The position numbers and the translations under genes are program-made. A stretch of DNA of 64,000 nt. Origin: Marsupella aquatica (lineage: Eukaryota > Plantae > Marchantiophyta). The DNA is taken from NCBI GenBank assembly GCA_973895155.1, contig OZ316894.1:11277892-11341891 (forward strand). Direction: 5' to 3'. The stretch's first letter is position 1. Each line of letters starts with the position of its first letter. The notes under the pieces are model-generated. The model saw nothing but the letters and a program-made list of their open reading frames with translations. It searched no databases and was not told where the DNA came from. Positions 28,023 to 51,305 of the stretch are shown one piece after another.

Positions 28023-28068
28023 AATCCTCACTACCAGCGCCTTCCACTGAGCGCTGGTAGTGAGGATT
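28023..28068. other. Perfect 18-bp hairpin with 10-nt loop
   Basis: AATCCTCACTACCAGCGC-cttccactga-GCGCTGGTAGTGAGGATT. Confidence 0.9.
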
Positions 28069-28276
28069 ACCGGGGGAGTCCTTCCTGGGGTTTGGCCAGA
28101 ATCCCCCCGTCTCCTCAAGGCCGCCAAAGCTTGCCAGGCCCTAACATAACCCTGGCTGATTGTGTCCTTCCACAGAGCGGCCTCCTTCCCTCCCTGCAAT
28201 TCCAAGGGCAAGACCTGACCGGTAGCCAAAGGGGTTCCTGGGTTTGCTGTCTTGGGTGGCATATCCGACATTCCCG

Positions 28277-29297: not shown

Positions 29298-29301
29298 AAG
29301 G

Positions 29302-29318
29302 AACCCCAATTTAAGGAA
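29302..29318 (+). repeat. Left TIR, AACCCCAATTTAAGGAA
   Basis: Exact reverse complement of 50335-50351. Confidence 0.92.
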
Positions 29319-29518
29319 TATTGAAGTATTAGATTAATTCCAATTTTATCTAAATATTATTAGTTAATGAATGATCAACCTCTTTAACATTTGGTGGGAT
29401 ACTCAAAAACTAAAAATATTTTGTTGCAAGATCTTTATAACAATGCATCACTAAATGACATCAAGTACCTCTTGATCCATGTACAAATCCTTAATTAAAC
29501 TGTCATTCATTGTTTCAA

Positions 29519-30096
29519 TTGTCTATTTAATTATTATAGGGTTGAATACAAAAAAGATTGACACGCACCAGGGTGCGTGACCTACAATCATAGTAAGTAC
29601 CACCCTTTAATTAGTTAGTTTCTTTACAACAATTAATAGGATTGTTGTATATTACAATGTCTACTCGACATTCATTTGAATGTCAATAATATCATGCCTT
29701 AATATCACCAAACTAAGGCCCCACTAACTAATATTATATCTTAAATAAACTAACCAACTAACTAACTTGTCTATTTAATTACTATAGGGTTGAATACAAA
29801 AAAGATTGACACGCACCAGGGTGCGTGACCTACAATCATAGTATCACCCTTTAATTAGTTAGTTTCTATTGCTTTGACTCAATCAGGCATGGAACCATAT
29901 AAAATCAGAAATCATTGAAAGTTGAGTTCACTTGAAGGTGTAACTATAATTATTATTTATTAATAGGATTGTTGTATATTACAATGTCTACTCGACATTC
30001 ATGTGAATGTCAATAATATCATGCCTTAATATCACCAAACTAAGGCCCCACTAACTAATATTATATCTTAAATAAACTAACCAACTAACTAACTTA
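29519..30096. repeat. Subterminal duplicated blocks (A-B-A-x-B) with palindrome variant ACGCACCAGGGTGCGT
   Basis: Block A at ~29519 and ~29767; block B at ~29633 and ~29959. Confidence 0.85.
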
Positions 30097-30189
30097 GACA
30101 ATAAGACTTGCCTAAACTTGAGTTCTCTGGCTACTACTATTTTGAGTTGCCTTTTAAACTGTATGCTAAACTACATGCTTCATTACTGT

Positions 30190-33100
30190 CTAGGATTTGT
30201 CACTTGCTATGCATGTCAAGAGATAGTCTATTGCCTTGGCAGCAACATTCTTTGGAATTCCTACCAGCCCTGTCACTGGTCCTTTGCGTGCTTTGAAACA
30301 CCACAAGGCAGAGGAAACATCTATTGTCTCAGCTTCCTTGTATATTGGAGCTGGATCACGTTCCTATTCTTATCCCAAGAATCTACCCACCGCTCTCTTG
30401 GCTGCCAGTCTGATTGACCACGTTGCTTCTTTGCCATAAATGGTCTAAACCACTCAACGCCACATACATGAGTAAGAAGGTTTTGTTCATTCACTGGTCC
30501 TTCTACCACATCTGTAACAACTAACCCCATATGGATGGGATAAACATCCAGGTCTGAGTCGTCCGGCCGTACCAACACATAACAGCCCTTCACAACATCA
30601 ACCCTAGGGTTAAAACTCTCAGGAGGTTTATCTTTTGCTGGTCCCACATAATCCACTGTTGCCTCCAACTCACATGCCACATTTTGATATTCTGGTGGAA
30701 CGTGCTCTCTCCATATTGATAAAGGCCAAAACCCGTATTCCAAGTGGTGTGCACCTTCAGGTTCATATTGCACCTGCTCACCCTGTAGAGTATCTACAAT
30801 GTCATTCCAATAATTTATGAGAGTTGTCCAACGTCGCTTTGGTTCTTCCTCTTTTGTTCGCTTTAGAATAAACTCAAAGAATGACACATGCTTCTTCAAC
30901 CCTGTCAGCACTTCAGGAAGCATTTTCAACTCCATCATTGGTAGCCGTTTGGGCACCCCAATTGGGATGTGAGGACTTTTGTCATCTTTCCATGACCACA
31001 TTTCAATACCTTCCTTGGGTAACCATCCCTGATCAGTTGATTTCATTTTGTATTGGAAGCATGGCATACTATCATGACAAACATAGAACCTAAACAGCCT
31101 AGGTTTTAAATGCCCCACCAATGCCTCAGGGCCCTTCAACATGAATGGAGCTAAGTAGTTTTTGAAATCTGGGACCTCCTATAGAAAATGTGGGACTGCA
31201 TTGGGTGTCCTTGCTCTCATGAACAAGGACATTAACTCAGGCAATGAGTATGTGGGGTTATGCATCATAGACTCTGAAAAATGCTCGAACATACCGTCAA
31301 TGTCCTCATGAGTATGCCCAACCACCATAAAACCAAGATGAACCTCTTCAAACACCTCCCTTGCCGTCAACAATGACAAATAAGCCATCATATATATGTT
31401 CTTGTTGTTTGAGGCACAATTATCCAGTTGTAGCTTCAATACTCGTGGAAGGGGCCTGAACTTTGGTGCCTCAGGTGCTGCATCACAATGTAACAATCTC
31501 AGAATGCTTTAAAATAAAACCCTAGTCAGACCCTAAACCCCAATTTAGGGTTTAGGGTTTAAACCCTATTAATGAAACCTTGGCTAAGAGGAGCAACAAC
31601 TACACAAAGTAGAGTGTCAGTGTGTGTGAGCTTATATTATTAAATAATTATAAATTAAAGGATTGTGAGTAAAGTACCTACGCTTGAGATGTAGGCAATG
31701 TCATCCTCAAATGCTCTAAGGACACTTGCCTCCAAGATATCTTTCTCCCAAAAAGGAGGTCTTTAAAAAGACTTGTCAAGTCTGGCCCCTCCACAAGTGA
31801 TTTGATCATTGGATTTGGGTTTTCCAACATCCTTAGTATTGAATCAATTGACCCAATAGTGATGTTGACATCACCTGGCCACACTCCAACATGATATTGG
31901 GCTATGGCCTTGGGACCATGACCATGAGTAAGGATACCAGTGACAGTGACGATAATTGAGAACTTTTGGACACCATCCACATGCTTAGGATTGAAGGGCA
32001 TTCTTGGGAGAGCTGTCTTTGAATGATCCATCTTATCATGAATAAGGCATAACACTTCCTTTGGATGATGGATGGACTCATATCTCCAGGTATGATAGCA
32101 CATTCTTTGCTGTGTGTGGTCTTGGTGATGTTCCTCCTCATCACGCCTTAGGCCCTCTAACTCTTCCTTAGCTCCTGTAAGGTTTGCTTTCCGTTGAAGC
32201 AACTCACTACAAGTTGTACATTTTGAAAAGTTGTTGCCCTTTTTGTGACGCGAGAACTCCCTGAAATACATCTGATGTAGATGACTCAAGGTGGGTTGGG
32301 AAATTGGAGGAAGACCAGCCTCCTTATTGACAACATTAACCCTATTTCTAATATTCTCCCAAGTAAGATTTGTTGGCAATTCCCTCAAAACCATCCTTGT
32401 ATTATCTGCCATGGTTCTCAACTTGGCTGGATGATGATCAGCTGCCTCCTCAATAATCTCTTTCATTGACATGAACGCTTGAGATACTTTCTCGGACATA
32501 CGCCTTTTTCCAGCATTACCATGGGTACCTATGTTCATTTTAGCCATCACAGTCTTCTTCAAGGCATAAAATTGAGTCTTTCCTCTTGAATGAATGATTC
32601 TCCATGCCTCCAAGCACAATACTTTGCCCTCCACTGCTAGAATCCTTTCTCCAGTACCCAAGTGTATTGTATTTTTAATAGCCTTGATTTCCTCCTCCTT
32701 GCGCTCCGCAAAATATTTTGACCACCACTTTTGCCTAATTGCCATAGCCAAGTTGCGGTCCAAATATTGGCAACAATGTTCACTACAACAGTCCTTAGAT
32801 GTGTCTCTTCTGGATGTCTAGGAAGATGGACTCTTTCTTTTCCTACTTTTATGGACGTAGGACCGCTTGCCACTTGTTGGAGATGTGTTCCCTCCCACAG
32901 CTTGCCTGATGTTGTGGAAAGACAACAAGTTGCCATCCTTGGCAATGAGTTGGTCCATCGACCAAGCTTTTAAGCAATCTCTATGCTTCAGATGATCTAT
33001 GATAGCTCCCTCGACAAAATCGTTGATCAGAATTCCCACATGTGTATTCCCAAGGGTGACATCCCCAAGCTTCACTATAGGATCTAGAACATGTATAGTT

Positions 33101-33550
33101 GCCACTGCAAAAATCAACTTGTTCTCATCCACCACCTTTACAGGCATGCCCATCCACAAGGCCTTTGGTAAAACTACTTCCACACCAGACCGACTCTCAT
33201 TATGGTTGTTCCCATCAGAATTTTGATTGACTGGATCTTGATCATCACCAACATTGCCAAACACATCCTCCGATTCCATGGGAGCTCGAAAAAGCTTATT
33301 CCTTTCCCATACAAGGTAACCCCCAATCATGTCCTTCAAAAGTTTGCCATCTTCGCATAGAATGGTCTTGTAAAAAACTTCCTCCAATAGAAGAAGACCT
33401 CTGTCCGCCCCAAGAGGAACATTCTGATAAACCCTGGAAGGATCAAGACTTATCACGCGACCTTTTCCAACCTGTTTCTCACGTATGCCTATAATAACTT
33501 GTCCGTCTTTCCTGATCCAGATTGTCAATGTCACCATAATAATTATGATC
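30190..33550 (-). pseudogene. Sola-like DDD transposase, two exons, disrupted
   Basis: ORFs 32818-33558 and 31678-32763 share a frame across one TAG. Intron 31677-31478 (GT..AG). ORFs 31179-31496 and 30321-31142 share a frame across one TAG. Motifs: CC..HCC, VLCLEAWRIIH, FSKCTTC..H, LIHDKMD, LQLDNCASNNKN, FMVVGHTHEDIDGMF. Frameshifts near 31750 and 30365. Confidence 0.8.
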
Positions 33551-33582
33551 CTGCACATCAGAGAATATCATTGTAAGCGTAC

Positions 33583-34243
33583 AGTCCTGTCACGTCCGTC
33601 AACTTCACTGCATTATCCCTAAACTGCACGCGATTGGTCGCGTGACCCTAGAGGTACCACACATACCGGCAACAGACTATGCATGGTCCGTCAATCATTT
33701 CAAGTGAATGAGAACGACCACAATCGATTACGATCAATCATTTCACATCCACTCAGAACAAATGAGTGGACAATACCAGTTTACCAATGAGTGGACACTG
33801 GACAGTCAGTAACTACCGAGGACTATAATTCTAATAAGCGCCAGTAAAAAATCCGTGAATTGCATTGTCCTGTCACGACCATCAACAAGTAAGCAGAATG
33901 TAGTCAATGCACTGCCCTGCACGCGACTAGTCGCGTGACCTTAGTCAGAGGGTGTAGGGATAATAGGGTCTACAAAGTAGAAGCTAGAAGCCTAGGCCCA
34001 AACTCTAGCTCGTACTTGGTACTTCATAAGTAAGATACGATTGCGCATGAGACAGTAAGATACAATTATGGATCTGAAGGCATCACACATACCGGTAACA
34101 GATTATGCATGGTCCGCCAGTCATTTCAAGTGAATGAGAATGACTACAATCAATTACGAACAATCATTTCAACTCCACTCAGAAAAAATAAGTGGACAAT
34201 ACCAGTTGACCAATGAGTGGACACCGGACAGTCAGTAACTACT
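33583..34243. repeat. Duplicated block upstream of the transposase, each copy with the 16-bp palindrome
   Basis: ctgcacgcga..gtcgcgtgacc at 33628 and 33921; cacacataccgg..ggacagtcagtaactac at ~33658 and ~34084. Confidence 0.85.
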
Positions 34244-34560
34244 GACCCTCATAAGCAATCTCAGTACTTCATTAGCAATCAGTATTCCCGGGGTGGTTGC
34301 CAAACGTGAAATTAAAGCCATAATTAGAGGACAACTGAACTTCCCACCAATTCTAATACGCGCCAGTCAAACGCGCACTCTCTTCTAGAAACCACTATGT
34401 ACAATGACTAGTGGAGACTAAACAGTATAAAGCATTGAGATGATCCCTACTACTCATTCCCCCACGCATTCCACTTTCTGGCTATTGGATAATCTATTCG
34501 CACATCAACTCTCTCATTTCCAATTCTTAGTCTCGGTCTGAATCTCTTGTTTGAAGGGCG

Positions 34561-35105
34561 ATGACTACTCCGCTGAGCTCAAAGAATGAGGATGTTCCGA
34601 CGGACGATTCAGAAGATTCGACATATCAAATTCGTGGTACTCCTTACAGAATGTGTCAGCGATGGAATATAATGTTTACGGTGACTAAATCGGGTCAAAT
34701 GTTTTGTGAGAGACGACATTGTTCGCCACATTTGTCGATGGAAGATCAGATGGAGAGCAATCCGACATAGATGACTACAAAGATGGCATCAGGGGAGAAG
34801 TTAAAGGGCAAAGCCCTCGTCAAATCCGTTTTGGGGGGGGGGAGAAGTTGAAGGCCAAAGCATGCGCTGAATCCATTTCGGGGGAAGCAGCAGCAGACGC
34901 TAAGACAGTCAAGAAGGAGGCCAAGAAAGTGGACGCACCGAAGAAAAGGCAATTAGAGATGAACAAAGATTCTGATTTGTATTACAAAAAGAGCAAGCCA
35001 AGAAAATCTATGGACGTTAGGACTTGGGCAAAGGAAGAATTCCTGGATTCAAGGGAATCCACACCAAACACCGATGACTGGATGCCTTCATCTTGGAATG
35101 ACTGA
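34561..35105 (+). pseudogene. Small frameshifted cargo ORF of unknown function (Cys-containing N-half, Lys-rich C-half)
   Basis: Overlapping ORFs 34561-34770 and 34719-35105 look like one gene with a frameshift; TATAAA at ~34426. Confidence 0.4.
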
Positions 35106-35349
35106 CTCGATCGAAGTCTACAATATTTTGAGTAGTCAAAGATTAGAACTACAGATTCAAGAGTAGTTCAAGTTAGAACTTGTTATAGATACTGTGTAGC
35201 TTAATTTTGTCCCGTGGAAAATAGTGTTCGAAAGACCAGGTCAGTTAAATTCCTGGATAGTGCTAGTGGATATGGATTCCACATCCGAAGTCCTTCAGGA
35301 TCGATGTAACCATTTTTGCAATCAAGGAAAAATCATCCACAAGATTCCT

Positions 35350-36395
35350 CTGACCTCTAAAACATTAACGCGACCGGGCGTGTGATGAAACAAAGACGTT
35401 GGTTTTAAAATAGATTTCTGGCCAATTTGCTAGGCTGTCGACTCCAATAAACAATATCAAAAAGACCTGAGATAAATTGGTTCACGTGACTATACACGTG
35501 ATGAACTACATGTGTAACCGAAAAAACAGGTCATCCAACTAACAAGTTGAGATCAGTCAGATCTGAGAAATAAAGCACGATTACGTTTAAGAGTGTAGAG
35601 CTTTTGCTGACCTCTAAAACATTAACGCGACCGGGCGCGTGATGACACGAAGACTTTGGTTTTAGAATAGATTGCTGGCCAATTCGCTAGGCTGTCGACT
35701 ACAATAAACAATATCAAAAGACACGAGATAAATTGGTTCACGCGATTGTGCGCGTGATGAACTACATGTGTAACCAAAAAATCAGGTCATCCTACTAACA
35801 AGTTGAGATCAGGCAGATCTGAGAAACAAAGGGCAATTATGTCTAAGAGTGCAGAGCTTTCGCTGACCTCTAAAACATTAACGCGACCGGGCGCGTGATG
35901 AAACAAAGATCTCAGTTTTAAAATAGATTTATGGCCAATTCGCTAGGCTGTCGACTACAATAAATAATATCAAAAGACACGAGATAAATTGGTTCACGCG
36001 ACTGTGAGCGTGATGAACTACATGTGTAACTGAAAAATCAGGTCATCCTACTAACAACTTGAGATCAAGCAGATCTGAGAAATAAAGGGCGATTACGTCT
36101 AAGAGTGCAGAGCTTTCACTAACCTCTAAAACATTAACGCGACCGGGCGCGTGATGATACGAAGACTTTGGTTTTAGAATAGATTTTTGGCCAATTCGCT
36201 AGGCTGTCGACTTCAATAAACAATATCAAAAAACCTGAGATATATTGGTTCACGCGACTGTGCGCGTGATGAACTACATGTGTAACCAAAAAATCAGGTC
36301 ATCCTACTAACAAGTTGAGATCAATTTGATCTAAGAAATGGCCCTCGATTACGTTTCGTTTCGCTAGGCCGTCGACTACAATAAACAATACCAAA
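35350..36395. repeat. Tandem array of four ~256-bp units, two palindromes per unit
   Basis: ctgacctctaaaacattaacgcgaccgggcg starts at ~35350, 35607, 35863 and 36119. Confidence 0.95.
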
Positions 36396-38954
36396 ATGTA
36401 CGGACAACTATAATTGAGCGCCATACAATTTTAGACTAGAGAATTCATTCGGATCCTCTACTAGTACTTCTGATACATTGCTTCTGTATTGGACTTGAAA
36501 CACGGATTGATCAAAATCGGAGTGAGAAATTGGACCATAACTTCATTGACTCAATTCATGCATTGAATGCGTGATTTAAGGCAACTACTCTCCTCATTTA
36601 TTGCAGAATTAATGCTTATTGATACTTACAAGTTATTCAGTTGCGTGTGGTCTCAGCGATGTTGGCGGCAACCCTCCTCCCAGCCAAGCCTCTTCCTTCC
36701 AGCGTAGCCTCTTCCTTCCAGCGTAGCCTCCTCCTTGTCCTAGCCAACTAAGCCTCCTCCTTCGAACTCCAATTTCCTTGAGTATTGTGACCGAATCCCA
36801 CCACCAGAGAATGACAACTTGTTGATCGTATCGAGATCAAAATCCTCGACCAGACAGTGATTTCAGAATAGCCTCTCTTTGTTGGTCCGCTAGAATGTTT
36901 CGATGAATGAGGCAGACTATGGAGGTTCTAAATCTTTATCGTCTCGCTTCGTCGCAACTCTCTTTCGCTTGATCGGATGTGCCCTCCCCAAGAAGGTGAT
37001 ACAACAAGAACTGCGCCAGCGTTGCTTGAATGAGCTTCGCCTCCGACTGGAATAGTTGAATGATCCAATCTGCTCCACCTCAAATGTGCCTTGGATCAGC
37101 CTCCGCTGAGAGCCTAGCTAGTATCCTGGTCAGGAGAAACTGAAAATGAAGAATGATCCGTGAGCAATGAGATCAGTCTATTGACTCCATGAAGGATGTG
37201 TTCATCTGGAATCAATTTTGATTTTGAAAATTGGTTGAGTCTCCAGTCGTGAGAATCATTGTACAGGATTGATTTTGAATATCGGTTCTCCTCGACCGTG
37301 AGAATCATTTTACGTTGTTTAGAGTTTGGGTTTGAATTGGCAAGATAGAGAATGGAGTACGGATCCGGATCCGACAGTCTCCACTACCAAAATGGAATGA
37401 TTTTGAAGTTTGCCTCACTCCGATCGTGAGAAAGTTGTCATTCGTTCACATTTTGGATTTGAATTGGCAGATATAGTGAAGATACGGATCCGGATCCGGG
37501 GGTCCCCACTAACAATCTTTTGCAGTTGCATAATTACCGGTTTAAATTTCAAATTGGCGATCAAATAGAAATCTCCTTTAGTACGGCAAATCAAAAGGAT
37601 TTTGGTAATCTTTTCTTCACGATTGCATAGTTTGTTGAGTCAATGGTGGAGTGTACAAAGATCATCTGGAACCTTCTTGTCGCTAGGCTGTTATTAGGGT
37701 TATGCTAAAATGATATCCTAATTAGTCCTTCCTTAGTGTCGGTGCCCACGGTCTCAAGTTCACTGTTCATTGTTGTTGTTTCTCGCTCCCTAGACTTTTG
37801 TGCGCCTACTCTCGTTGCTCTCGCTCTCGCTCTTGCTCCTGCCCTAGATTTCATTTTTGTCTTGTAGCTTGTTCGTTGTGGTCAGGTGCTTGTCGGCGCA
37901 TTGCAGCTCTTAGCAGTTGTCGATTGTTTCGGTCAGGAGCTCGTTGGTGTGTTGCAGCTTGCATTTACAGCTCGTATTCACTTCTAGTTTGCTCAAAGGG
38001 ATTCTTAGGAGCTCAATGGGTTTGTTGCAGCTAGTTTTTGGGAGTGCTTGTATCAGCTCGTGTTAGCCAATTTTAAGCTCATATCAGCTTGATCAACGTG
38101 TTTCAGCAGCTCGAACTACTTTTTGGCAGCTTGTTTTAGCTCCTTTCATTCATCATTCAGGTTTGTTTAAGCTCTTTCAATCTTCAAGTTTAGTGCACTT
38201 TTATTCATGCTCACTTTGTCTATTGACATCTTTGATTGTACTTCTGGAAGAGTCTTATTAACTCGACATAATGAGTTCCTTAGCATTAAGCACATGTTAT
38301 TCAATTGGCAGCAGCGAAGCTCTATGTATAGAAGTATAGAAGCTGTGTTGTTGTTGCTTAGCATATTAATATCTTCAATCTTATATTTACTTTTTGGAAT
38401 GCCGCAGCAAGGTCTTCAAGTGCTTGGACGTCAATCTCTCAGACGATTACATCAATTTTTCAGAATTCAGGTGCAATTTCTACATTATCTGCTGGTGTTG
38501 ATTGTTGTTTGCTAAAATTTCTCTTGATTGTTAAGCTGAGTTTTCATAATGCAGTTTGTCTGTAAACTCAAATATGTCTGAATCATACAAACTCACTAAT
38601 TAAAATACAACCTGAATCGTCTTAAGTAAGTCATTACAAACCTGCACGCTGTGAATTTAATCATATAAACTCTCATGTTATGTTACACTGAATCCTTTAA
38701 TTGACAAATACAACCAGTAGACTGCTAAATTGAATCATCTTAGCTGAATCATTCTCTAAATTGAATTCCTTGCAATATGAAAACTTCTGATATATAATAG
38801 TTTCACAATGAAAGAGCTCAAACATCTGAATTATTGTAAAGTTCATGAATAAATACAAATGAATGAAATCATGCTTACTCGGATTTCCCTGTTCGTAGGG
38901 GTCAGTAATCACAGTTGTATCACTGTATTATCCTAGTGTCCAAAAGTTATTTGA

Positions 38955-39702
38955 GCTGTTGATGCGACCAGTCGCATGAGAAGATTGTGAGGTTCCATTT
39001 AGGATCAGTTGACGCGACCAGTCGCGTCTGAGGTAGCTCTCTCATTGACTGGTTCTGTTAGAGGAGGTAAGGTTCCATTTAGTTTAGTTGACGCGACCAG
39101 TCGCGTGTGAGAAGGAAACAGGATAGATTACTGAGCGCGTACCATATCCAAATCTCCAAAAGGAAGGTTCAGTGGATATAGTTGTTTAGGTTCAGTTGAC
39201 GCGCTCAGTCGCGTCTGAGGTAGCTCTCTCATTGAATGGTTTTGTTAGAGGAGGTAACGTTCCATTTAGGATCAGTTGACGCGACCAGTCGCGTCTGAGG
39301 TAGCTCTCTCATTGACTGGTTCTGTTAGAGGAGGTAAGGTTCCATTTGGGATCAATTGACGCGACCAGTCGCATGTGAGAAGGAAATAGGATAGATTATT
39401 GAGCGCGTACCATATCCAAATCTCCACAAGGAAGGTTCAGTGGATATAGTTGTTCATGTTCAGTTGATGCAACCAGTCGCGTCTGACATAGATCTCTCAT
39501 TGACTGGTTCTGTTAGAGAAGGTAACCTTCCATTTAGGATCAGTTGACGTGACCAGTCGTGTCTGAGGTAGCTCTCATTGACTGGTTCTGTTAGAGGATG
39601 AAGCAACATTAATGATTTGTCACGTTGTGACCTAAAAAAATCACAATCTTCCAAAGAATTGTTTAATATACATTCTGATTTGTAGACGCGACCAGTTGCG
39701 TG
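38955..39702. repeat. Array of ~80/~108-bp subunits, each led by GTTGACGCGACCAGTCGCGT
   Basis: Nine motif copies at 38962, 39012, 39091, 39199, 39279, 39359, 39467, 39547 and 39686. Confidence 0.92.
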
Positions 39703-39742
39703 AAAATCATCCCTGGGATGTATCATTTGGCTGAAAAGAGTC

Positions 39743-40296
39743 ATGGGGGAACCTAGTCTGGAGAGCTTCAGATATCTATGCCCAATATTTGACGTTTTGG
39801 ACAGAAGCCAAGATGGTCTACTGGCGGGATATTCTGTAATTGTTGAAACACTACTACCTGGACTTCCAGATTTGATTGTCGCGGAATTGATATGGCCTCG
39901 GATCAAGGAGTCATTGAATTCCTTGGTTAATGCATGAAATTTCTCAATAAAGGAATTGGATGAGTTTGTAGGACTATCTTCAATGTGCCGCAGATGGCGC
40001 CACCTTGTTGGGAATACCTATCTTTTGGGTGTAATCAAGTTGAGTTTATTAGATTTGGCTTTCCCAGGAAATCCTACTAAACCGATTCAAAATGAGTCTC
40101 TCTCATCGACAGTTCAAAGTTTCTTCTAGAAATACCCAAGAATTAAATTCATGGGGTCAATGTCCAGAGATCTTAGGGAACTCTTCACGAAGACTTACGA
40201 TGCTCTTCACCCTCTTGAAAAATGGAAATTTACAGTTAGATGCCACGAAGTTGGATACCTTGAGGGTGACATCTACGCTTTTAAGGAATGCTAGTT
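39743..40296 (+). pseudogene. F-box-like module 1 (disrupted)
   Basis: LLPGLPDLIVAELIWP..(*)..LSSMCRRWRHLV. Confidence 0.65.
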
Positions 40297-40359
40297 AACT
40301 TACGCGACCGGGCACGTTGTATGTCTTCTAACAATGTTTTGTGATATGATAAAAGCAGG

Positions 40360-40887
40360 ATGAGCCAACTTTTGAATGAGGCTCGAGATTTCCTTTCATC
40401 TCATGAAAGGAAACAGAAAACAATATGGGATACGCTGGATGAAACCTCCTCTAGTCTCATTGGAGGAATACCAGATGTTTTGGTCATTTCAAACATTTGG
40501 CCAATACTCTACAAACACTTTATTTCAATTGAAGGATTGCGTCGATATCGACACCCCGATAACAATTTGGTTATCGATAGGATCCGAGACCTTATTCGGC
40601 TTGGAGCTTGTAGCAAGAAGTGGAACTTTTTAGTTACAAATACAAGGTTATGGGCTATCCTCAAACGAGCAAACCGGATTGTCAATGACACAAATGAAGC
40701 ACTTTACTACATACCCAAAACTGATGAGTTGGAGTTTGACTCAATCTGTCGAGTTATTCAAGAGGATATTTCTATGTTCCCAGAAATATCTGTTCTTGGG
40801 ACTACTACTTCTGACAAAATCGTATTGTTTACGAACAAATATAACTATTTAGATGCTCAAGGAAGAACGAGATGTTCTAATCGAAAG
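40360..40887 (+). CDS. F-box-like module 2 (exon)
   Basis: LIGGIPDVLVISNIWP..LGACSKKWNFLV..RLW; phase-0 donor at 40888. Confidence 0.65.
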
Positions 40888-40973
40888 GTTTGGTAGATTT
40901 TCTCAGAATCTAGGTGGTCCCAATTCTTAATGGATAGGTTCTTGTTCTTAATCTTTTCCATATTATGTTGCAG

Positions 40974-41491
40974 TCCTTTGACATGAATCAAAAATCTCAT
41001 CGTCAAATGATGATGAAGCGCATTGCACGTGCAAAGGTTATGAACCAAAACATGATATGGAGTCAAGCTGAAAACCTGATACCCGGTCTTCCAAACGATG
41101 TTGTCGAGAAATATATTTGGCCATTAGTCAAAGAGTTTTTCCACTCTCGTGAGAATTTGTCAGATAATGCGATTAAAAATCGGGTCATGGACTTGATCGC
41201 CATTCAAACAGTCAATAAGAAGTGGTGCCACATAGTTACTTATAGTAGTACTTGGGCGACGGTCACCTTGGTAGCTTACGACTTCACTGATAGACTAGGA
41301 TATGAATCGCTTCGAAGGAATTTGACTTCACGGAGTGTAGCATTCAAATTTACAGAATCCATCATAACTCTCCCGCCGCTGGACATTCTGAGTGGATTTG
41401 AAGGATCTGAACTTGACACGTTTAGGAACCTTTGGTTTTTGTTAGATGAAGATGAGCAAAAGGATTGGGTCAGGATAAACGTTCCTAAAAT
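40974..41491 (+). CDS. F-box-like module 3 (exon)
   Basis: LIPGLPNDVVEKYIWP..IQTVNKKWCHIV..TW; acceptor AG ends at 40973. Confidence 0.7.
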
Positions 41492-41569
41492 GTAATTTGG
41501 CACGACACGACCATGCGCGTGTTAGTATTTTATAATAAATGTTTAACTTTCATATTTGTCTATTTCAGA

Positions 41570-44500
41570 ATGGATCCTACCGGAACTTCAAAGCGGAAAA
41601 GAGACTCGTCTAAAGCTACTTCTCAAAAGAAAGCCAAGACAAAAATGACTCCCGCGGAGACATTCATACTTGCATATCGAGGAAAGTCAATCAGAGAGAG
41701 AACAACGGAGACAAAGAGTATCCATCTCTTTGATTCGACTGAGATATTCGATCTTGGAATAGTCGTTCGCAATGGGGCTGTCCGTCTTGTGGTGGCAAAA
41801 AATGATAAAGCTACAGTTTTGGAGAGGTCGCAAATTTTTGGGTGTTTCTTTGAGAAGAACATGAAAGTTAAAGAGTGTACAGAGGGCTTGGTTATGCTAG
41901 TCAACGACGACCAGCAGGAGGACAAAATAAGCATTTGTTTGGATCGAACGCAATATGTAACCTTCAATCAGCCCAGAATCAATGATCTTCTAGGTGCAAG
42001 GCACGCCTTGGAAAAGGTTACTAGTATGGAATATCCTTCCAATCCAGAGGGATCAACGGGAGATTTGATTTGTCAATACATTATTGACGTACTTGAGTTT
42101 CAGAGAGTTAGTTTCAACCAGGGATTTTGCTTGGGAAAGGCCCCCCCAGTTACCAAGGTTGAAATATACTCGGTGGAGAATCTTCCGAAAGTAATTACCT
42201 CAACAAATGTCGGGGCTCTGTTCGATTCTTTCCTCAAAGAATATAGTGTTGTGAATATATTTAACAGCAAGTCATTTTTTGTTGAGACATCACGTTGTCA
42301 TCTTGCACCGGACCACATCAAGTGCCGAGAGTGGAATCAGGATTTACACAAATAGGCTAAAGAATTCACTCCTCTCTCATTCGGCTATAAAGTTTAAAAA
42401 GCGATGTTGCTTTTTAGTCCCTGTGAAGTGGGTTCAGTCGGAGGCCGACAGAGATCCCGACTACAATGGGACACCCTACGATTTGGCGCTAACAGAGGAG
42501 GACATTATGACCAGTCATTTTTGGATACTCGGAGGCCAGCACACAATAATGGCGTACAAATTGCTGAAAAAGGATGACAAAGTCAGCCAAGTTGTACGAG
42601 ACGCATGCGGTACTGTAGAAGCTGTAATGTTTTGGGCAACGCTCAACAACAACAATAATGTTCATTTGATGGGACTATCGAAGGCTCTGAACCACTATCA
42701 TCAAACATCAATCGAAGGACAGTTTCTCACCATTGTACGACAATGTCGTAATATCTGAACTCATTTGGGCGGCCTGGATCACATTATCATCATCCAAATT
42801 GGAAGGTATATAAATAACCTTCTTCGATCACATTATCGTTTAAAATTTTGTTACGCAAACCGGCGCGTCAATCTTAGAATTTTTCTCACGCAAACGGTCA
42901 CATCAATCTTAGAATTGTCATGTTTCCATTGTTTTTCAGGTATTTATGAGAGCTACAAGTTTTGTTTGCCCATGGGCTCAAATGGGGAAGAACGCAATAA
43001 TGAAATTTGGAGAATTGGCTCCATTTCTCTTTACAATGGAGGACAAAACATTCAAGAAGTGGATGGAGGTCTACAAACTATCAAGGACAAGAGAGCTTGT
43101 AATTTACAACGGAATTTTATAGAGGGACGCCGTCAAAATTGTGGATAATCCCTGTGCTTATCATCTTCTGAAGAAGACGTTCCGTTCTTGTCAAGGATGC
43201 TCGGACTCGGTTCTTTGAAAGGCAGCGGAATATATGTTGAGCGGAAGACTGTCTATACTCAAAAACCAAAGCATCAAAGTGAAATCTGGGGGCTCTGTTG
43301 TTGTCAACGACCAGCATGAGTTTGGAGCAATTCTGTATAAAGAAGAAGACAAAAGTTGAGTTTGAGATTTTATTATTGAGTAAACTCAACGGGGACACAT
43401 CCACCCGGACGGAGCTGCAAATTCTGACAGATTCAGTGCGGAAATTGCGGGTCAAAGGAATGATTGATCGCTTTAAGCTTGACAAGATGGTGCTGAAGCA
43501 GTTGAGAGATGCGTTGAGTGGTTATCTGAAGAAGTGCTTAAATGTAAATATTAGTAATGATAATTTGTTGAAAGAGATCGACCCGATATTCCACAGGTTG
43601 GTGGAAGGAATACAGAAATTAGTTGAGAGTCAAGGAAACCAACTAGTGCGACCGGTCGATGAGAGGCTAAAATTGCAATCCCTGTAGGATATACAAAATG
43701 TTGGGTTTGTAGACTGTATCATACGTGAAGACAAGAACCTTGCAAGCTTGATTTATTTTGATTCCTCATCAATGGGAGATTTGCGTCCGCCAAATTGCTC
43801 ATTCTATGAGGGGTTATTTTGTGTGCTACTAGCGAGATAGGGGCAAAACCACACCATGTGGTTATTATTGTAGCCTCTCTCGTTGAGTCTTATTTAATCA
43901 AATGGGATTTAGGGAAGTACACACACTACGTTGTTGTCGATAGCCATTATATTCAGAAGCGGCCGAAGGAGAAGAAGCTTATTGTAACCTACGCTTTTCA
44001 TAGCTTGGCCTTCAGCACAATGGGCGATCCACAAGCCCTCGAGTTCCAATTGGTCTCCAAATATCAGATTGAGAAGATAGCCAATTTTGAAGAGAGCGGC
44101 GAGTACACGACACCTTCCCCAGAAAAGATACTTCCATTCTTTGAAAGTATTGTTAGTCAATTCGTCCAATGTGGGGAATGGGCTATATGCTTTGGCGAGG
44201 GAACCAACTTGATCCAGTGCTTAATGGTAAGTTTTGAGATTTATATTTTGGGGTTTTAATTTTAAGATTGTTTAGATTTTTATATTCTCAATTAATATTG
44301 TGAACTAATTTCGGCTTTTTTTACAGGATGCTAGATCCAATGTAAAATATTACTGCCCTGTGGCAACGCATAGGGAGTTATCTTGTTTCTTGCAACACAC
44401 CACGGCGACAATTGATACAATGCTGTCATTAATTGACCCAATACGGGCTAGTATAGAAAAATGTATAGATAAATTAATGAAGTACCGTCCATCCGTAACT

Positions 44501-44648
44501 GCTCTCAGGGCTGATGTTTTGGATGTCCTCCACGAACAACATATCCCTGATAATATTTGTAATCAATTATTGCAAGAGAATGCCCTCTCTGAAGATTCTG
44601 ATCGATTGTACATTCGACCAACGAAGTACCCTCATGGGCCAATCCAAG
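41570..44648 (+). pseudogene. NLS + ParB/Srx-like domain + helical region + degenerate amino-MTase-like domain (exons 41570-42805, 42940-44226, 44327-44648)
   Basis: KRKR..KKAKTK; CHLAPDHIKCREWNQD..RLKNSL..FWILGGQHTIMA..LSKALN (ParB-like GxH motif); ASLIYFDSS (motif IV position); PEKILPFFESIVSQFVQCGEWAICFGEGT (motif X-I position); several stops and frameshifts. Confidence 0.55.
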
Positions 44649-44776
44649 GTAGGTTACTTTTGAACCCTCTTACTTTTTCTTGTGTCACGCGAACATGCAC
44701 GTGGACATTCTTAACATTTCTTCTCACGCGAATATGCGCGTGAGTCATTCTTATCTAATGATCTGATTTTATTCAG

Positions 44777-46372
44777 ATCAAGTTGACTGCTGCTTCAATG
44801 TTGAGGATGCAGGGAGCAATGGTGATGCGGATGGTGAGGGGGAAGGTGACGTGGAAGGTGACACGGATGGGGATGTCAATGACCAAGATCCAGAGTGGAT
44901 GACCGATATGCAGAACGACATCGGAGATTCCGACAATAGCGAGGAAGAGAGTGACGGAGAGGAGATGAAGGACGCTGAGGACGCTGATGAAGAGGACGAG
45001 GAGATGGAGGGTTCTGAGGACGCTGAGGACTCTGATGAAGAGGCCACACAGGAGCCTCGACATGAGGCGGACCGAGAGGAGGCGGCCCGGCAGGAGGAGG
45101 CCAGAGAGGAGTCGGCCTGGCAGGAGTTGGTCTGGCAGGAGGCGACCCGGCAAAAGAAGGAGGCGGCCCGGCAGGAGAAGGCCCGACAAGAGGCGTCTCG
45201 GCAAGAGGAGCTTCAAAAGAAGGAGGTGACCCAGCAAGAGGAGGCCTGGCAGGAGGCGTCCTAACAAGAGGCGGCCCAGCAAGAGGCGGCCCGGCAAGAG
45301 GCGCTTCGAAAGAAGGAGGCTAAGAAGAAAAAGGCGGCAGCTAGAAAAGCAACTGCTGCAAAGAAGAAGGAAAAAGCCAACGCTGAGAAAGCCCAAGCAA
45401 AGAAAGCCGAAGCTGAGAAAGCCGAGGCTGAGAAAGCCCATGCTGAGAAAGCCCAGGCTGAGAAAGTGGAGGCTGAGAAAGCGGAGGCTGCGAGAGTCCT
45501 TTTAGTGACAGAGGCAAATAGGGCCAAGGCGGAGAGTGTGGCGGCTGAGAGGCTGCTGGCCGAGACGATGGTGGACGAGATCAAACAGACCGCAAGACCA
45601 GAGAGGGTGGAGGCGGAGAAGTTGAAGGCGGAAAAGGTCGATTCCGCAAGACTGGAGAGAGAAGAAGCCGCAAGATTGGAGAGGGTGGAGGCGGAGAAGG
45701 TGGAGGAAGTGAGGAAGGAGGCCGAGAGGGCCAAGGATCTTTCGCTTATTCCTGAGGCACAACATCTACCAAAAATAAAGTTGAATTTGAAGAAGCCTTC
45801 TTCACCCTCAGTTGCAGTTAAGAAGAAAATATTAGATTATTTTCTTCGCCCGGAGTTTGAATTTAACGATCCACCCTTAAGTACGGTCTCATTGGATGAT
45901 TGGAATAAACATTCACCAGAGCAGCTCCAAGTCCAGGTTGTCTTGGCTTTGCAATATTGGAAGGGTCTTTTGATTACCGAGGAGAAGACTGCCACTGCAT
46001 CCAGAATGGAGACAATCATCAATAATGTCTGCTTTTCCAAAAATTGAGTGCAAGACCTGGGAACGTCTTTGGCACCAGACTCGGCTCAAGTCGTTAAGAG
46101 ACTAACAGCTGACTTGACGCGACCGGGTTCGTGGTCTCAACCCCGATATACTGCAGAGGTCACTCACGCAGAAATTGTGGCACCGGATATTTTGGAATTG
46201 GATTCCTAGCCTGTGGAATATTTAAATCAAATGCCACAACCATTCGAAGGTCTTTCCGCCTCATCGCTCCAACCTTCGCAAACTGGTCCGGTGGAGCGAT
46301 CACTGCGGTCTCGAGGAGGGCTGAAGGATGTTGTTGCAAAGGAGGCACCCAAGAGATCAGCTGCAAAAACAG
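44777..46372 (+). pseudogene. Acidic low-complexity and E/A/K/R coiled-coil exon of the cargo gene
   Basis: In phase with the upstream exon; D/E-rich tract, then (RQEEA) and (AEKAE) repeats; in-frame stops at 45262, 46045 and ~46207. Confidence 0.7.
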
Positions 46373-46373
46373 T

Positions 46374-46470
46374 CTATTTCAATTATTATATTTCCTGAAG
46401 TATCATACCAATACGCGTTTTAAAGTTTTGATTGATATTTGTGGCGTTGATCATCACTCTCAAAAATGAA
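46374..46470 (+). pseudogene. nad9: Mitochondrial nad9 fragment (NUMT)
   Basis: LFQLLYFLKYHTNTRFKVLIDICGVDH.SQK resembles plant mt Nad9 LFQLLxFLKxHTxTRxQVLIDICGVDYPSRKRR; AT-rich; out of frame with the surrounding exon. Confidence 0.85.
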
Positions 46471-46645
46471 AGGCCGGATCCACCCAATCCAAAGGTCATT
46501 CGCAAGCTATAAGCTTAAAGTTTCTATTATAGCCGTCATTATTTTATTATTGATTTGTTATTGTTTCTGTTTTCTGAGGTAGAACACTTAGGCTACAACC
46601 TCAGTACGTTATTTGAAGGCGTACTGAAATCTCTATTTTTTGCAG

Positions 46646-47434
46646 TTTTTTGGAAATTTGGCTAGTCGAATAGATCAATGCCTTGATCCTTCTAAGGATA
46701 TGGAAGAGCTATTGACCAAGTTCTTACAACACTCGATCAAGAGGAAACATATGATGTGTCTAAGACCGCGCGAGTTGCTCACCGATGATATAATTAACGC
46801 TTATTTGAGTTTTCTCGAACTGATTCTCGATAGAGTTGGAAAGTCAGACCTTGTCAAATTCTTCCAAACACACCATTTTGAGCTTCTCTCCATGGATCCT
46901 ACCATTTTTGATGAGGAGAGAACAACTTGGACAAAGGAGTTTCCGCTAAAAATCAATGAATACGACAAACTGGTCTTTCCAATACACAATGATGTGAAAG
47001 AATATTGGTCATTGGTAGTTGTGTATCCGAAGGAGAAACGGCTCGAGTACCTAGATTCTCTAGTTCATAATCGACAAAATTCTGGGGTGCTAGAAATTGT
47101 TGGGAAGTATTACGCCGACAAAATTGGCTGGAGTACTGGTGTCAACTTGGATCTCTCAGGTTGGGAACGGATATATCGGAATGATATTCCTCACCAGAGT
47201 GACAGCCACAGTTGTGGTGTGTTTATCTTGAGATACGCCAAGTGCTTGTGTCAAGGAAACAAAATTAATTTTGCCACGGATCAAATTGAGAAATTCCGTA
47301 GGGAGATAGTCTTGTCATTATTTGACATGGACTTTCGCAAGCCAACGTCCGCAAATAACCTAGTTACCGGGATCCGTGCTGCTATGATTGACATTTTTGG
47401 CGGAATTCCAGCACTGAACGACCGTCTTGTACAT
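46646..47434 (+). CDS. Ulp1/peptidase C48 SUMO-protease domain exon; catalytic His replaced by Tyr
   Basis: LRPRELLTDDIINAYL, FFQTHHF, LVFPIHND..EYWSLVVV, YLDSL, PHQSDSHSCGVFIL. Confidence 0.85.
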
Positions 47435-47520
47435 GTAATACACTTCATTTCAGTGTCTCTCTTTATAGTCACGCGACCGTTTGCGTTATAAACTTATTTT
47501 CATTTCTTAATGTTTTACAG

Positions 47521-48424
47521 AAGCCTATCCCAAAACCCCCTGATCGAGTATCAAAGGCACCAGTCTGAAAGTCCGGTGATCGTCCGGAGGCGGGAAACAA
47601 ACAGACCGTTCTAGTACGTTCTCCAAACCCCGCGACATCAAAATCACAGGTACAGATGACGCCTAATCCATCAGCAAAGAAGTCACCGGTTCAGAAGAGA
47701 CTTGTAATTTTTGATCTGAATCGGTACTTATCTGGTCAGAGAAGATCAGCCCTGGGATGCCCATTCGGTCAAGGGGTGTGAGACAGATGCACAAGGTTAT
47801 CTATCCAAGGCCTGATTTAATGGAATTTCTTGAGAAGTGGCAGATCTATACGACATTGTGATCTGGTCATGCATGTTCAAACAAAATATTCTATCTTGTG
47901 TAAGGCTGATACTTCGACCCAAAGTTTTGAAACGTATTAAATTTATATGGGGACAAGAATCAACTCGACCTATTGGGAAGAATAATAATGACATCCCCTT
48001 ATTTGTGAAATGTCTCTCCGACATTGCCACCGATATTAAAGATTACAACATCGAGAATGTCATTCTTATCAATGATGTTACATATAAGACGAGCCTTAAT
48101 AACTTCTATTCATCGCTGTATCCCGATGCATATTCTGGGCTCGATGATGACCTATTTTTTAGAAAGAAACTATATCCATATCTATGCGACATGTCAATTG
48201 ACAAGTTGACATTCCGCGAGCTCCTTAGTGGATATGGGATTCCAACGTTCTCTCAAGAAAATCTTGAGAGAGATTATATTGATAAGACGAATCTTTGGAG
48301 GAGAAATGTGATCATTCGTAATCAGGGGAATAAAGACCATTTAGAAAAGTTTGACGAATATATGAAATACTTATCTGCCAAAAAAGACCGTGCTATAGAA
48401 GCCCGGGATAAGTCCGATAAGTAA
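47521..48424 (+). pseudogene. FCP1/NIF-like HAD domain 1
   Basis: KRLVIFDLNR, YDIVIWS, KFIWGQE, PLFVKCL, ENVILINDVTYKTSLN; disrupted near 47566-47830. Confidence 0.75.
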
Positions 48425-48555
48425 ACGTTTATTGTTTATTATCAATTATTATCTATAAATTGATTGAGATTGAACTTTATATTTTGGGAGTGACGCGCCC
48501 GGTCGCGTGGTTGTTTGCAATTGCATAATATGATAATCGAATTGTTCATTTATAG

Positions 48556-49180
48556 GTGTCTAAGTGGAGTAGGTCGCGTAAACATCTAGTTTTAGGACTA
48601 GAAAACTTCAACTAGAAAGCTCTGTTTAAAAATATACTCCTCAGCTCAAGTCGACACCCGGAATTCATATCGGATCTCTATGTGTCGTTCCGAGGCCGCA
48701 TCTTCATGATCTTATAAAATTCTGTTATGATCATTTTGATGTGATGGTCTAGTCTATTATTGACGACAAACTGGTTTATCAGATACTTTCAGAAGTGTTG
48801 TCGAGCACGACCTGTTGCAACTGATATATGTGTTCACGCGGGATCATTGCTGGAATCTTGGTTATGTGAAGAAAAATTATAAGACTGTTGTCATCAAATC
48901 TATCGAGAGACTACGTGATATGTTTCAAGATTATCGACCAGAGAATATAATCCAGATTGATGCCTATCCTTCCCATACATGCCAGACAGCTGTATGCGGA
49001 TTATTGTTTGCTATGTTGTTTCAAGGATCGTTGGATGATGTCTTTTTTGGAGGGATGACCTCATTCCATATTTACGAAAGCTATCAGATTCAGGGCTTTG
49101 TCTTGCGTTCGCTAACAAGTTTGATTATCCCATCTGGTTGATTAGAAATCTACATCGAGATTGGGATCTGAATGAGGATA
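48556..49180 (+). pseudogene. FCP1/NIF-like HAD domain 2 (degenerate)
   Basis: KHLVLGLENF, RPHLHDLIKFCYDHFDVMV, YVFTRDHC, VIKSIERL, ENIIQIDAYP; frameshifts and stops. Confidence 0.65.
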
Positions 49181-49355
49181 TATGGGAGCATCTGTACGTG
49201 CAGAGACATGTGGATCAAGTTCTTATCAAGCACTTCAACAGACGTCACTTATCAATGGCCAGAGTGTAGAGGATGTTGTCTCTGTAATATGTGACGCGAC
49301 CATTCGTGTGACTACATCCATACGGGCTCATGCATCTTCTTGTGTTTCTCTACAG

Positions 49356-50045
49356 GAGATTCATTGCAGCAGAGAAAATGGGCTCATAGTTTTAGACATG
49401 GAGCATCTACTCTGTTACACTGCACCGCATTCTCGACTAATGGCGGTCTCAACTAGAATTCGGATTGAGAATATATACGTTTTTCCAAGGCCTCATCTTC
49501 ACGAATTCTTGAGATTCTGTCTTGAGAATTTCGATGTAGGGATCTGGGCCTCTCTTGGGAAGAACCTTTTAGATCAGATTTTAGCATCTATTTTTACTGC
49601 GATGGAAATGGTCTCATTTAAGTATATTTGGGATCAGTCTCATTGTTACTTATGCGATGGGGTGACATCAAATAAACAGATATTTTTGAAGTGTTTTGAG
49701 AAGGTTGGAATTTATACAAAGGCGTATTTGCAGCAAAATATAATGTTTATCGAATTCGATGCATTTCATGCTTGTTTAGATCCTGTTGTTGGATCATAAT
49801 TTCCCCCCAAATATTTTGGGTCGGTCAACGACAATTTCCTGATTAACTTGTTGATTCCGTATCTTAGCAAGCTAGCAAAATCTTGTGAGCCACTTGTCAT
49901 TCCCAATGGAAGAGATTATCCTGATTGGTCAGTTAAATCTATTTTTAGAAATTATGATTATAATCATACTCTATGGGAAGACCCTGTGATTCAGAGGCAT
50001 GGAGATAGATATCTAGTAGAGCAATTTAACAGACGCCCAATTTAG
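49356..50045 (+). pseudogene. FCP1/NIF-like HAD domain 3
   Basis: LIVLDMEHLL, FPRPHLHEFLRFCLENFDVGIWAS, FKYIWDQSHC, IFLKCFEKV; stop at 49797-49799. Confidence 0.8.
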
Positions 50046-50334
50046 GACGCTTCCGAAATAATAGTCGGCATGAGATCAGATTAATTTGTATTGTCGTTCT
50101 AGAAATGATTTGTAAACTCCTTATATACTGGTTATCATATATAAAGGATCTCAGAGATTTATTTCTCTATTGTTATTATTTGCGTGAGCATGTCTTTTGG
50201 TCCCGTCAAGTTGGATTGGTTCAAATGTGACATTGCAGTCATTTCAGGGTTTCACGCGCAGCCACACGTCATGTCGCCCCCTTTTTATTAAAATAATAAT
50301 ATTTAGTGATTTTCGGAATTTCCAAAGTTCGGTT

Positions 50335-50351
50335 TTCCTTAAATTGGGGTT
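50335..50351 (-). repeat. Right TIR, TTCCTTAAATTGGGGTT
   Basis: Exact reverse complement of 29302-29318, followed by TSD AAGG. Confidence 0.92.
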
Positions 50352-51305
50352 AAGGGGCTCCTCCGGATTTCCCACAAGCGACTCCATCCACTCCATCGTG
50401 CTATCCTCATCCGGGTTCTCTTCTATAGTGGTTTTGGCTAGAGGTTCAGACGGTGGTTCCTTTGCAAGACTCCCCAAGATGGTAGTTGCAATCCTCCGTA
50501 TTTCCATGGTGAAGGGTGGCCCTGATTCTTCAGTTTCAGGAGAGGGGAGGAGCCCTTCTGACCTGGCCAAGAGGAATGACACCATCAAGTGAACGCTTCC
50601 TCCGGACTTCAGACTTTTAGGATCCATGGCCAATGTTTTCTTCAGCCCAAAGTACCACCATCCGTAAGTGTGACTTGGGTGAGCTTTGATGTCATTGGCA
50701 CTAGCCAGTTGATCTCCACTCACCATTCCAGATTGCCCCCAGCCAAGCACCCGTTGGTGTATCTTGGCCACCAACCCCTTGAAGGCTGGTTCCTTGAATG
50801 ATGAAAGGGGAATGTTGGTCACGGAGGTGGGATCTCTGACAACCCTAGCTAGCTGCTCCAACGTAAGTATCCCCGGTGGCTCCGTTGGCTGAAAAGTGAA
50901 ATCTTGGTTGTCCAAGAACAATAGCTTGGCCAGCTCCGTATTGGGAATCAATTTTTGTGTGCAATGAAAGTATATCCCCTCCGTACGGAACTCTAATCCT
51001 GCCTCCACGTTCCAAGTCCTACCATGGGGAATCCTGATCTCTACCCGAATGAAATTGGTGAGACGTGTGGCCTGAAAAATTTCCTTGCGTTCCTCCATCA
51101 TCTTGGCAGAAGTCCGCGGGTAGACTCTTTGGAAAACCCTCCTCTCAACCGATGCGCTATGGGTACTGTATGGTCCGGTACTCATGGCTGTATGTCTCTC
51201 TTCCCCCTCTTCAGCAATTTGCGACGCAATGTAATCCCGGTAAGCGGCCTTGTATCTACGTATATGGGCCCTACTGAACTCCGGTCTTTCCAATGACGAC
51301 CTCAT
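50352..51305 (-). pseudogene. N-terminal 318 codons of the host-element ORF (accessory TE protein, family not established)
   Basis: Open frame from ATG at 51305 to the TSD; continues in frame at 29297 once the transposon is removed. Confidence 0.7.

Follow-up and report, generated by a model that had tools for sequence, protein, structure and literature searches.

The 64-kb stretch of contig OZ316894.1 considered here (64,000 nucleotides, hereafter the window) contains, at 29302–50351, an element of 21,050 bp bounded by terminal inverted repeats (TIRs) and flanked by a 4-bp target-site duplication (TSD). A broken gene for a DDD transposase of the DUF7869/Sola type occupies part of its left half on the minus strand, and a divergent block of accessory (cargo) genes, composed of three F-box-like paralogs, a predicted polyprotein with ParB-like, Ulp1 and NIF/HAD parts, and two additional NIF/HAD paralogs, occupies the right half on the plus strand, while a spaced palindrome confined to the element recurs in its non-coding DNA. 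The evidence supports these 21,050 bp being one TIR/TSD-bounded unit that joins a Sola-type DDD transposase to the divergent cargo block. On balance, the sequence favors a cut-and-paste transposon of 21 kb, dead in this copy, that would have moved with its cargo as one unit, and whose predicted polyprotein would bind the element's own palindromes and act against silencing.

Element boundaries and insertion site

The left TIR starts with AACCCCAATTTAAGGAA at 29302–29318, and the right arm at 50335–50351 is its exact reverse complement, in agreement with the perfect 17-bp TIRs and the length reported in a first-pass annotation of this DNA; gapped similarity extends the repeats to about 68 bp, with a score reached by one of 2000 shuffles. 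A scan of the window for inverted repeats accompanied by direct repeats returned 13 pairs, among which the pair of this element ranked best, and no pair of at least 17+4 appeared in any of 40 Markov windows. In silico removal of the element and one AAGG restores a stop-free frame of 415 codons, while removals off by one or two bases, more or fewer, leave a frame of only 317–341 codons; this bears out the in-frame rejoining of the flanking open reading frame (ORF) described previously, a frame being preserved by chance alone with a probability of about 1 in 3. The 4-bp TSD is retained with a reservation, since AAGG is found on both sides and only this register gives symmetric element ends, but TTAAGG is also present on both flanks, which makes the register ambiguous by 2 nt at this single site. 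TTAA was rejected as the duplication, as it gives asymmetric ends.

Searches of Pfam and PHROG with the interrupted host ORF (Table 1) gave no family match. The host sequence on either side (27000–29301 and 50352–52600) is a GC-rich repeat carrying the 415-codon coiled-coil ORF, and pieces of this repeat reappear inverted at 56595–56695 and near 61024.

Transposase

The transposase gene matches DUF7869 in Pfam (E 1.5e-30) and aligns along full-length relatives. Its catalytic motifs are HDKMD (32040–32026), QLDN (31430–31419) and HEDID (31310–31296), the last included in GHTHEDID, a set that we take to be of the type found in Sola. The complete DDD triad, the TIRs and the 4-bp AAGG duplication at this one site agree with the Sola-like backbone proposed by the first-pass annotation. 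Stops at 32818 and 31179 and a frameshift near 31752 interrupt the coding sequence, and this copy is therefore dead. A probable intron lies at about 31677–31506; within it, plant-telomere-like TTTAGGG/AAACCCTA repeats (window 31500–31580) produce a third match to the TIR, with three mismatches, at 31536.

A profile search with the transposase identified 467 relatives at E ≤0.001, the named ones being hypothetical proteins from Riccia sorocarpa, a liverwort, and from marine deuterostomes; a word-based protein search with the transposase piece found no longer relatives. In a quick tree of 28 rows, picked by length and motifs from the proteins found here, the transposase groups with the Riccia proteins (SH-aLRT 98), on a long branch, which would point to a land plant outside the seed plants, probably moss- or liverwort-like, as host. 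The spacing between the second and third aspartates is 42 residues (D42D) in all the proteins with motifs located (27 of 28). The DUF7869 transposase proteins of Riccia sorocarpa and amphioxus share this DDD core and spacing; their records are hypothetical proteins about 25–31% identical to the transposase of the element, and were compared as proteins only. The literature search returned no paper that names DUF7869.

Other backbones (CACTA, MULE and KDZ) were rejected, since Pfam gives DUF7869 only for the transposase. CACTA/EnSpm elements are characterized by CACT termini and a 3-bp TSD, and KDZ/Zisupton elements by a KDZ transposase domain; this element, which has AACC termini and a 4-bp TSD and lacks any such Pfam domain among the 28 frames scanned, was assigned to neither group.

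Accessory genes

The three F-box-like paralogs are mutually similar (pairwise blastp, E 5e-10 to 2e-7), which upholds their earlier description as a set of three, but the F-box identity itself is weak, the Pfam values being 0.003, 0.11 and none, all below the cut-off. The ParB-like, Ulp1 and first HAD segments, which the same annotation listed as separate cargo genes, are probably exons of a single spliced polyprotein gene. Protein P0160 (58% identical) joins the N-terminal frame starting at 41570 to the ParB-like frame, so that the two form one protein, and five phase-compatible GT-AG introns run from the ParB-like frame through Ulp1 into the first NIF domain, from which one gene of about 2,050 codons is predicted; one junction, near 46370–46470, is left without an assigned splice. 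The Ulp1 domain is well defined (Pfam Peptidase_C48, E 9e-20; SENP1 match, 1.7e-16), and the three HAD copies are likewise confirmed, the third by its match to Pfam NIF (E 5e-11), and the first and second by pairwise blastp against the third (E 4e-13 and 8e-18, respectively).

The ParB-like assignment has moderate support. In the Atlas, the frame is placed at 0.95 with a cluster in which 35% of the members carry ParB_N and at 0.94 with a DUF3723 cluster, whereas the ParB-like match in PHROG reaches only E 0.2; a word-based protein search for longer relatives of the frame found one. Viral contigs and phage tblastn searches gave no match, and the AlphaFold models of the methyltransferase (MTase)-like frame and of P0160 (pLDDT 43 and 36, respectively) were too low in confidence for fold comparison.

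The MTase-like label is not sustained by any of the searches. Pfam, PDB, PHROG, phage tblastn and word-based searches gave no significant match, and nothing was found in the Atlas at ≥0.9; in this copy the segment has probably degenerated to a remnant. This result bears on the possibility that an active N4C/N6A DNA methyltransferase is made by intact copies and guided to the element by the ParB-like domain, a chemical marking of the kind proposed for the giant element Sola1-1_Ec32 of the brown alga Ectocarpus. The accessory gene of Sola1-1_Ec32, located on the strand opposite to the transposase, encodes a protein of 1,104 amino acids with a ParB-like domain and an N4C/N6A MTase, which has been suggested to bind the element that carries it and to modify it (PMC12477816, in its passages on this element). 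A published ParB+MTase gene at the same position, the CG-rich palindrome and an hhalign match, the sole one, that falls on the motif X–I (SAM-binding) segment of MTases speak for such an enzyme. That match, obtained from a broken copy, falls short of significance (P 0.14), the expected place shows no DPPY/SPPY-type motif, and the acidic residue ahead of the glycine loop is missing, all of which makes an active methyltransferase improbable. In the favored reading, the effector parts of the polyprotein would be the Ulp1 and NIF/HAD domains.

The positions of all features are collected in Table 1. The region of the possible decayed coiled-coil gene contains a pair of short blocks that resemble each other, near 37360 and 37490.

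Table 1. Features of the element and of its insertion site (positions in the window).
Feature	Position	Strand	Remarks
Left target-site duplication AAGG	29298..29301	.	TTAAGG register possible
Left TIR	29302..29369	+	Perfect over 17 bp (29302-29318), imperfect to ~68 bp
Dispersed palindrome ACGCG-N6-CGCGT (core ACGC-N8-GCGT)	29563..50269	.	Motif counts
DUF7869/Sola-type DDD transposase gene, broken	30321..33567	-	Pfam DUF7869, catalytic motifs, alignment to relatives
Short charged ORF, two frames	34560..35105	+	No family match
Tandem array, 256 bp x 3.8	35350..36323	.	Two palindromes per unit
Possible decayed coiled-coil gene	36650..38520	-	Read by eye
Tandem array, 80/108-bp units	38992..39598	.	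One palindrome per unit; directly upstream of cargo block
F-box-like paralog 1	39743..40096	+	One stop
F-box-like paralog 2	40360..40896	+	Pfam F-box-like E 0.003, below cut-off
F-box-like paralog 3	40965..41495	+	Resemblance to paralogs 1 and 2 only
Predicted spliced polyprotein gene, ~2,050 codons	41570..48424	+	Broken: 7 stops, ~6 frameshifts
Polyprotein parts in order		+	N-terminal domain; ParB-like (~42300-42800); MTase-resembling, unconfirmed (~43740-44230); acidic/coiled-coil repeats
Polyprotein parts, 3' side		+	Ulp1 (46646-47434), then NIF/HAD 1
NIF/HAD paralog 2	48600..49269	+	Two frameshifts; start uncertain
NIF/HAD paralog 3	49368..50045	+	Pfam NIF 5e-11; a single stop; HAD motif 1 degenerate
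Right TIR	50284..50351	-	Perfect over 17 bp (50335-50351), imperfect to ~68 bp
Right target-site duplication AAGG	50352..50355	.	
Interrupted host ORF, 5' part	50356..51305	-	Remainder at 29301-29004; repetitive itself

A dispersed palindrome and the CpG pattern

A spaced palindrome of 16 bp, ACGC-N8-GCGT (consensus ACGCG-ACCRKK-CGCGT), is present in 19 exact copies in the element and in none in the remaining 43 kb of the window (expected, 0.12); allowing one mismatch, the numbers are 29 inside and 4 outside. Non-coding DNA holds 27 of these 29, while 59% of the element is coding according to the gene models (P 5e-9), and the bias persists outside the two tandem arrays (14 of 16 non-coding; P 3e-5). 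The copies are distributed among introns, intergenic gaps, both arrays and both sides of the transposase gene, and one lies 97 bp from the right end. The occurrence on both sides of the transposase and near the right end ties the two halves of the element together. The first-pass annotation did not include this palindrome, which appears to mirror, by analogy, the target sites of VANC, which occupy introns, tandem repeats, and regions that are intergenic or terminal (PMC5735166, in its account of those sites). Local duplications at 29632–30095 and 33652–34245 (137 bp at 99% and 168 bp at 90%) adjoin palindrome-bearing segments.

The palindromes are found close to either end and upstream of most genes, which would also be expected if, in a single mobile unit, they were sites of the transposase, involved in the synapsis of ends 21 kb apart or in self-activation, or sites of a host transcription factor, the cargo having no anti-silencing role. 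According to a 2026 preprint, transposases themselves can activate cognate copies (10.64898/2026.08.24.746577), and the catalytic residues of the cargo are degenerate in this copy. Such an explanation is nevertheless unlikely, because the majority of the palindromes lie well inside the element, within introns and tandem arrays at a distance from its termini, and because the ParB-like domain is supplied in cis, and the relative in Ectocarpus, as far as its description goes, keeps a ParB gene in the same orientation. Binding of the palindromes by the polyprotein of the element is the reading followed here.

The CpG content differs sharply between the two halves. At synonymous sites, CpG is kept in the cargo (75 observed vs 101 expected) and depleted in the transposase, which is free of the motif (14 vs 46), and NCG codons amount to 57 of 349 and 8 of 182, respectively (P 4e-5). 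This contrast, read from codon composition, is consistent with a local protection of CG sites from methylation, and it would fit a different origin of the cargo equally well.

Repetition of the element

Four of six DNA runs (X1, X2, X3 and X5) were compared over 40000–54000, with 22 bins inside the element from 40000 to 50273. The median summed depth inside was 8270, 8358 and 1736 in X1, X2 and X3, respectively, and the depth of the zero-mismatch flank contig was 33.4, 45.2 and 22.2, giving inside/flank-contig ratios of 248, 185 and 78 (lowest bins, 146, 125 and 55), where summed contig depth is not equivalent to copy number. The flank medians were 1226, 1910 and 599, and X5, a run with another organism label, showed low depth in 28 of 30 bins. 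The elevated depth continues to within 78 bp of the right end, and every part of the cargo is read as being repeated on the order of 100-fold, out to that end. Small indels occur in other copies at seven of the frame breaks of this copy (seven of the 12 rows listed, out of 87 in all), indicating that the family is more intact than the copy analyzed here. A 102-bp segment of the polyprotein gene, 46367–46468, is skipped or replaced in many other copies, with the joint seen in X1, X2 and X3, and is a possible subfamily marker. A scan of metagenomes for the 17-mer of the TIR gave 72 loci, none of which resembled the window by blastn or tblastn, that is, chance occurrences.

Since the high depth is known for the cargo half only, and the CpG of cargo and transposase differs so markedly, the element may be regarded as a composite in which the cargo half moves, or once moved, independently and the transposase end accompanies it in some copies only; fixed nested insertions are frequent in the giant elements of Ectocarpus (PMC12477816, in the part describing them). 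The first-pass annotation had named a nested cargo with its own termini as a possible refutation, and inside the element no convincing nested TIR/TSD pair was detected, the single 11+3 pair being at chance level. This result, the palindromes that flank the transposase and reach close to the right TIR, and the depth that stays high almost to the right end make a composite origin quite improbable. The alternative retained is a single unit that moved with its cargo.

Comparison with known systems

The closest published counterpart is Sola1-1_Ec32, of 21,549 bp, with AACCG–CGGTT termini and a 4-bp TSD (PMC12477816, in the sections on Sola elements). The same sections refer to similar ParB-type proteins in transposons of green algae and of red algae, report a TSD biased to end in A for the Sola1-1_Ec32 type, and list Sola1-1_PPa as best hit in the Ectocarpus table. 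Giant size and a divergent accessory gene of ParB type have thus already been published for a Sola element, and the earlier statement that this element matches no known family does not hold. The two elements are alike in size (about 21 kb; 21,050 bp here), AACC...GGTT ends and 4-bp TSD, and in an accessory gene on the strand opposite to the transposase, with a ParB-like domain that is putative in the present element. The termini here are AACCC–GGGTT, sharing four of the five terminal bases with AACCG, and the imperfect TIR measures about 68 bp instead of 282 bp. The depth is about 100-fold here, in contrast to two intact Sola-1 copies in Ectocarpus. The accessory protein of about 2,050 amino acids carries Ulp1 and NIF domains and no confirmed MTase, whereas a recognizable MTase is present in the algal protein, and the three F-box-like genes, the two extra NIF copies and the palindrome arrays are not mentioned in the available account of Sola1-1_Ec32. 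The AAGG duplication, known from one site only, does not end in A, and the host is a probable land plant rather than a brown alga. Judged from the published description, the element would work in the manner of Sola1-1_Ec32, of whose group it may be a member. The new components are the enlarged polyprotein, the repeated F-box and NIF genes, and the element-wide palindrome.

A second resemblance, in the target pattern and the protease, is to the VANDAL/KIU MULEs with VANC of Arabidopsis. Both systems have a short, element-specific motif that recurs in introns, between genes, in terminal DNA and in tandem arrays (PMC5735166, in part), and they share an Ulp1 domain fused to an accessory protein and a local CG protection, the latter putative in the present element (PMC13317346, in its passages on Ulp1, which is found on MULEs). 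The VANDAL/KIU elements differ, in the same accounts, by their MULE transposase, absence of TIRs, VANC domain and non-palindromic 9-bp motif, as opposed to the DUF7869 DDD enzyme, TIRs, ParB-like domain and spaced palindrome here, and anti-silencing has been demonstrated in them, while it is only deduced for the present element. The amphioxus protein XP_035667799.1 (P0167) has an N-terminal Ulp1 domain fused to a DUF7869-type transposase (E 1.8e-19), and a partial DUF7869 protein (P0122) also carries an N-terminal Ulp1 domain; the pairing of Sola-type transposase and Ulp1 therefore recurs outside plants.

Among other Sola elements, a Sola1 of roughly 15 kb from Physcomitrella is reportedly included in Repbase. 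The Sola2-Fanzor elements of dictyostelids also combine a Sola backbone, short TIRs and a 4-bp TSD with a variable cargo half, although their TSD is AT-rich (AWWT) and they carry Fanzor, in contrast to AAGG and no Fanzor match here (PMC3627910, in its section on these elements). Sola elements have been reported in ferns (PMC6786969, in part). The relevant parts of PMC6431247, PMC4738411, PMC5751038, PMC4455052 and bioRxiv 2021.09.26.461848 contain nothing on this element family, and the cargo set and the palindrome appear to be undescribed so far according to a literature search that was not exhaustive, since it missed PMC12477816.

Proposed mechanism

Intact relatives would very probably excise and reinsert the whole unit by means of the DDD enzyme, generating 4-bp TSDs. 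ParB is a palindrome-binding type of domain that recognizes parS. By analogy with ParB–parS, the ParB-like part of the polyprotein, acting as a dimer, would quite possibly recognize the palindrome over 16–20 bp. Together with the NIF/FCP1-like domains and the F-box-like adaptors, the SUMO protease might then, more tentatively and on the model of VANC/KIU in VANDAL, act locally on host silencing marks and factors, removing or diverting them, with the F-box-like proteins serving as adaptors or decoys for host ubiquitin ligases. The previous suggestion that the element is equipped to counter host control is one that we also infer, and it is strengthened by the non-coding pattern of the palindromes. 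In its widest form, somewhat unlikely at present, this scheme would imply that land plants harbor a second, VANC-independent anti-silencing system on giant Sola elements, in which a ParB clamp of bacterial type would load on parS-like palindromes, present in almost all non-coding gaps, and bring along the SUMO protease and the CTD-phosphatase-like domain fused to it, while F-box proteins act as decoys.

Several observations weigh against this interpretation. The catalytic histidine position of Ulp1 is a tyrosine in this copy, and the first HAD motifs of the NIF/HAD paralogs are non-canonical. Pfam and PDB sequence searches with the ParB-like frame gave no match, and the MTase-like frame scored −2.7, level with shuffles, against a profile of 10 beta-class MTases. 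The CpG contrast is equally compatible with a cargo of different origin. The depth data span the cargo half and not the transposase and the left TIR; no single contig covers 40000–54000, and linkage in other copies is not visible; in X3 the flank, itself repetitive, peaks at a bin of 1445, above the weakest bin inside the element (1231). The run contigs contained no second full-length copy, independent TSD, empty site or other junction.

Significance

If the mechanism fails, a large undescribed member of a known group remains. A survey of 1,007 plant genomes restricted elements to 2–12 kb (PMC12973397, in its stated limits), so that giant families like this one would have been missed. The ParB-type accessory proteins of algae were proposed to bind and modify their own element, and the passages of PMC12477816 on them name no target site. 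The palindrome, which is restricted to the element and, within it, almost entirely to non-coding DNA, is a candidate for that site and makes the binding idea directly testable; if true, it would be the first target site identified for accessory proteins of the ParB type that have been proposed for algal transposons. The element would, in addition, place giant Sola elements, in a high number of copies, in what is probably a land plant, and would be a case of convergence with VANDAL/VANC on a different transposase backbone.

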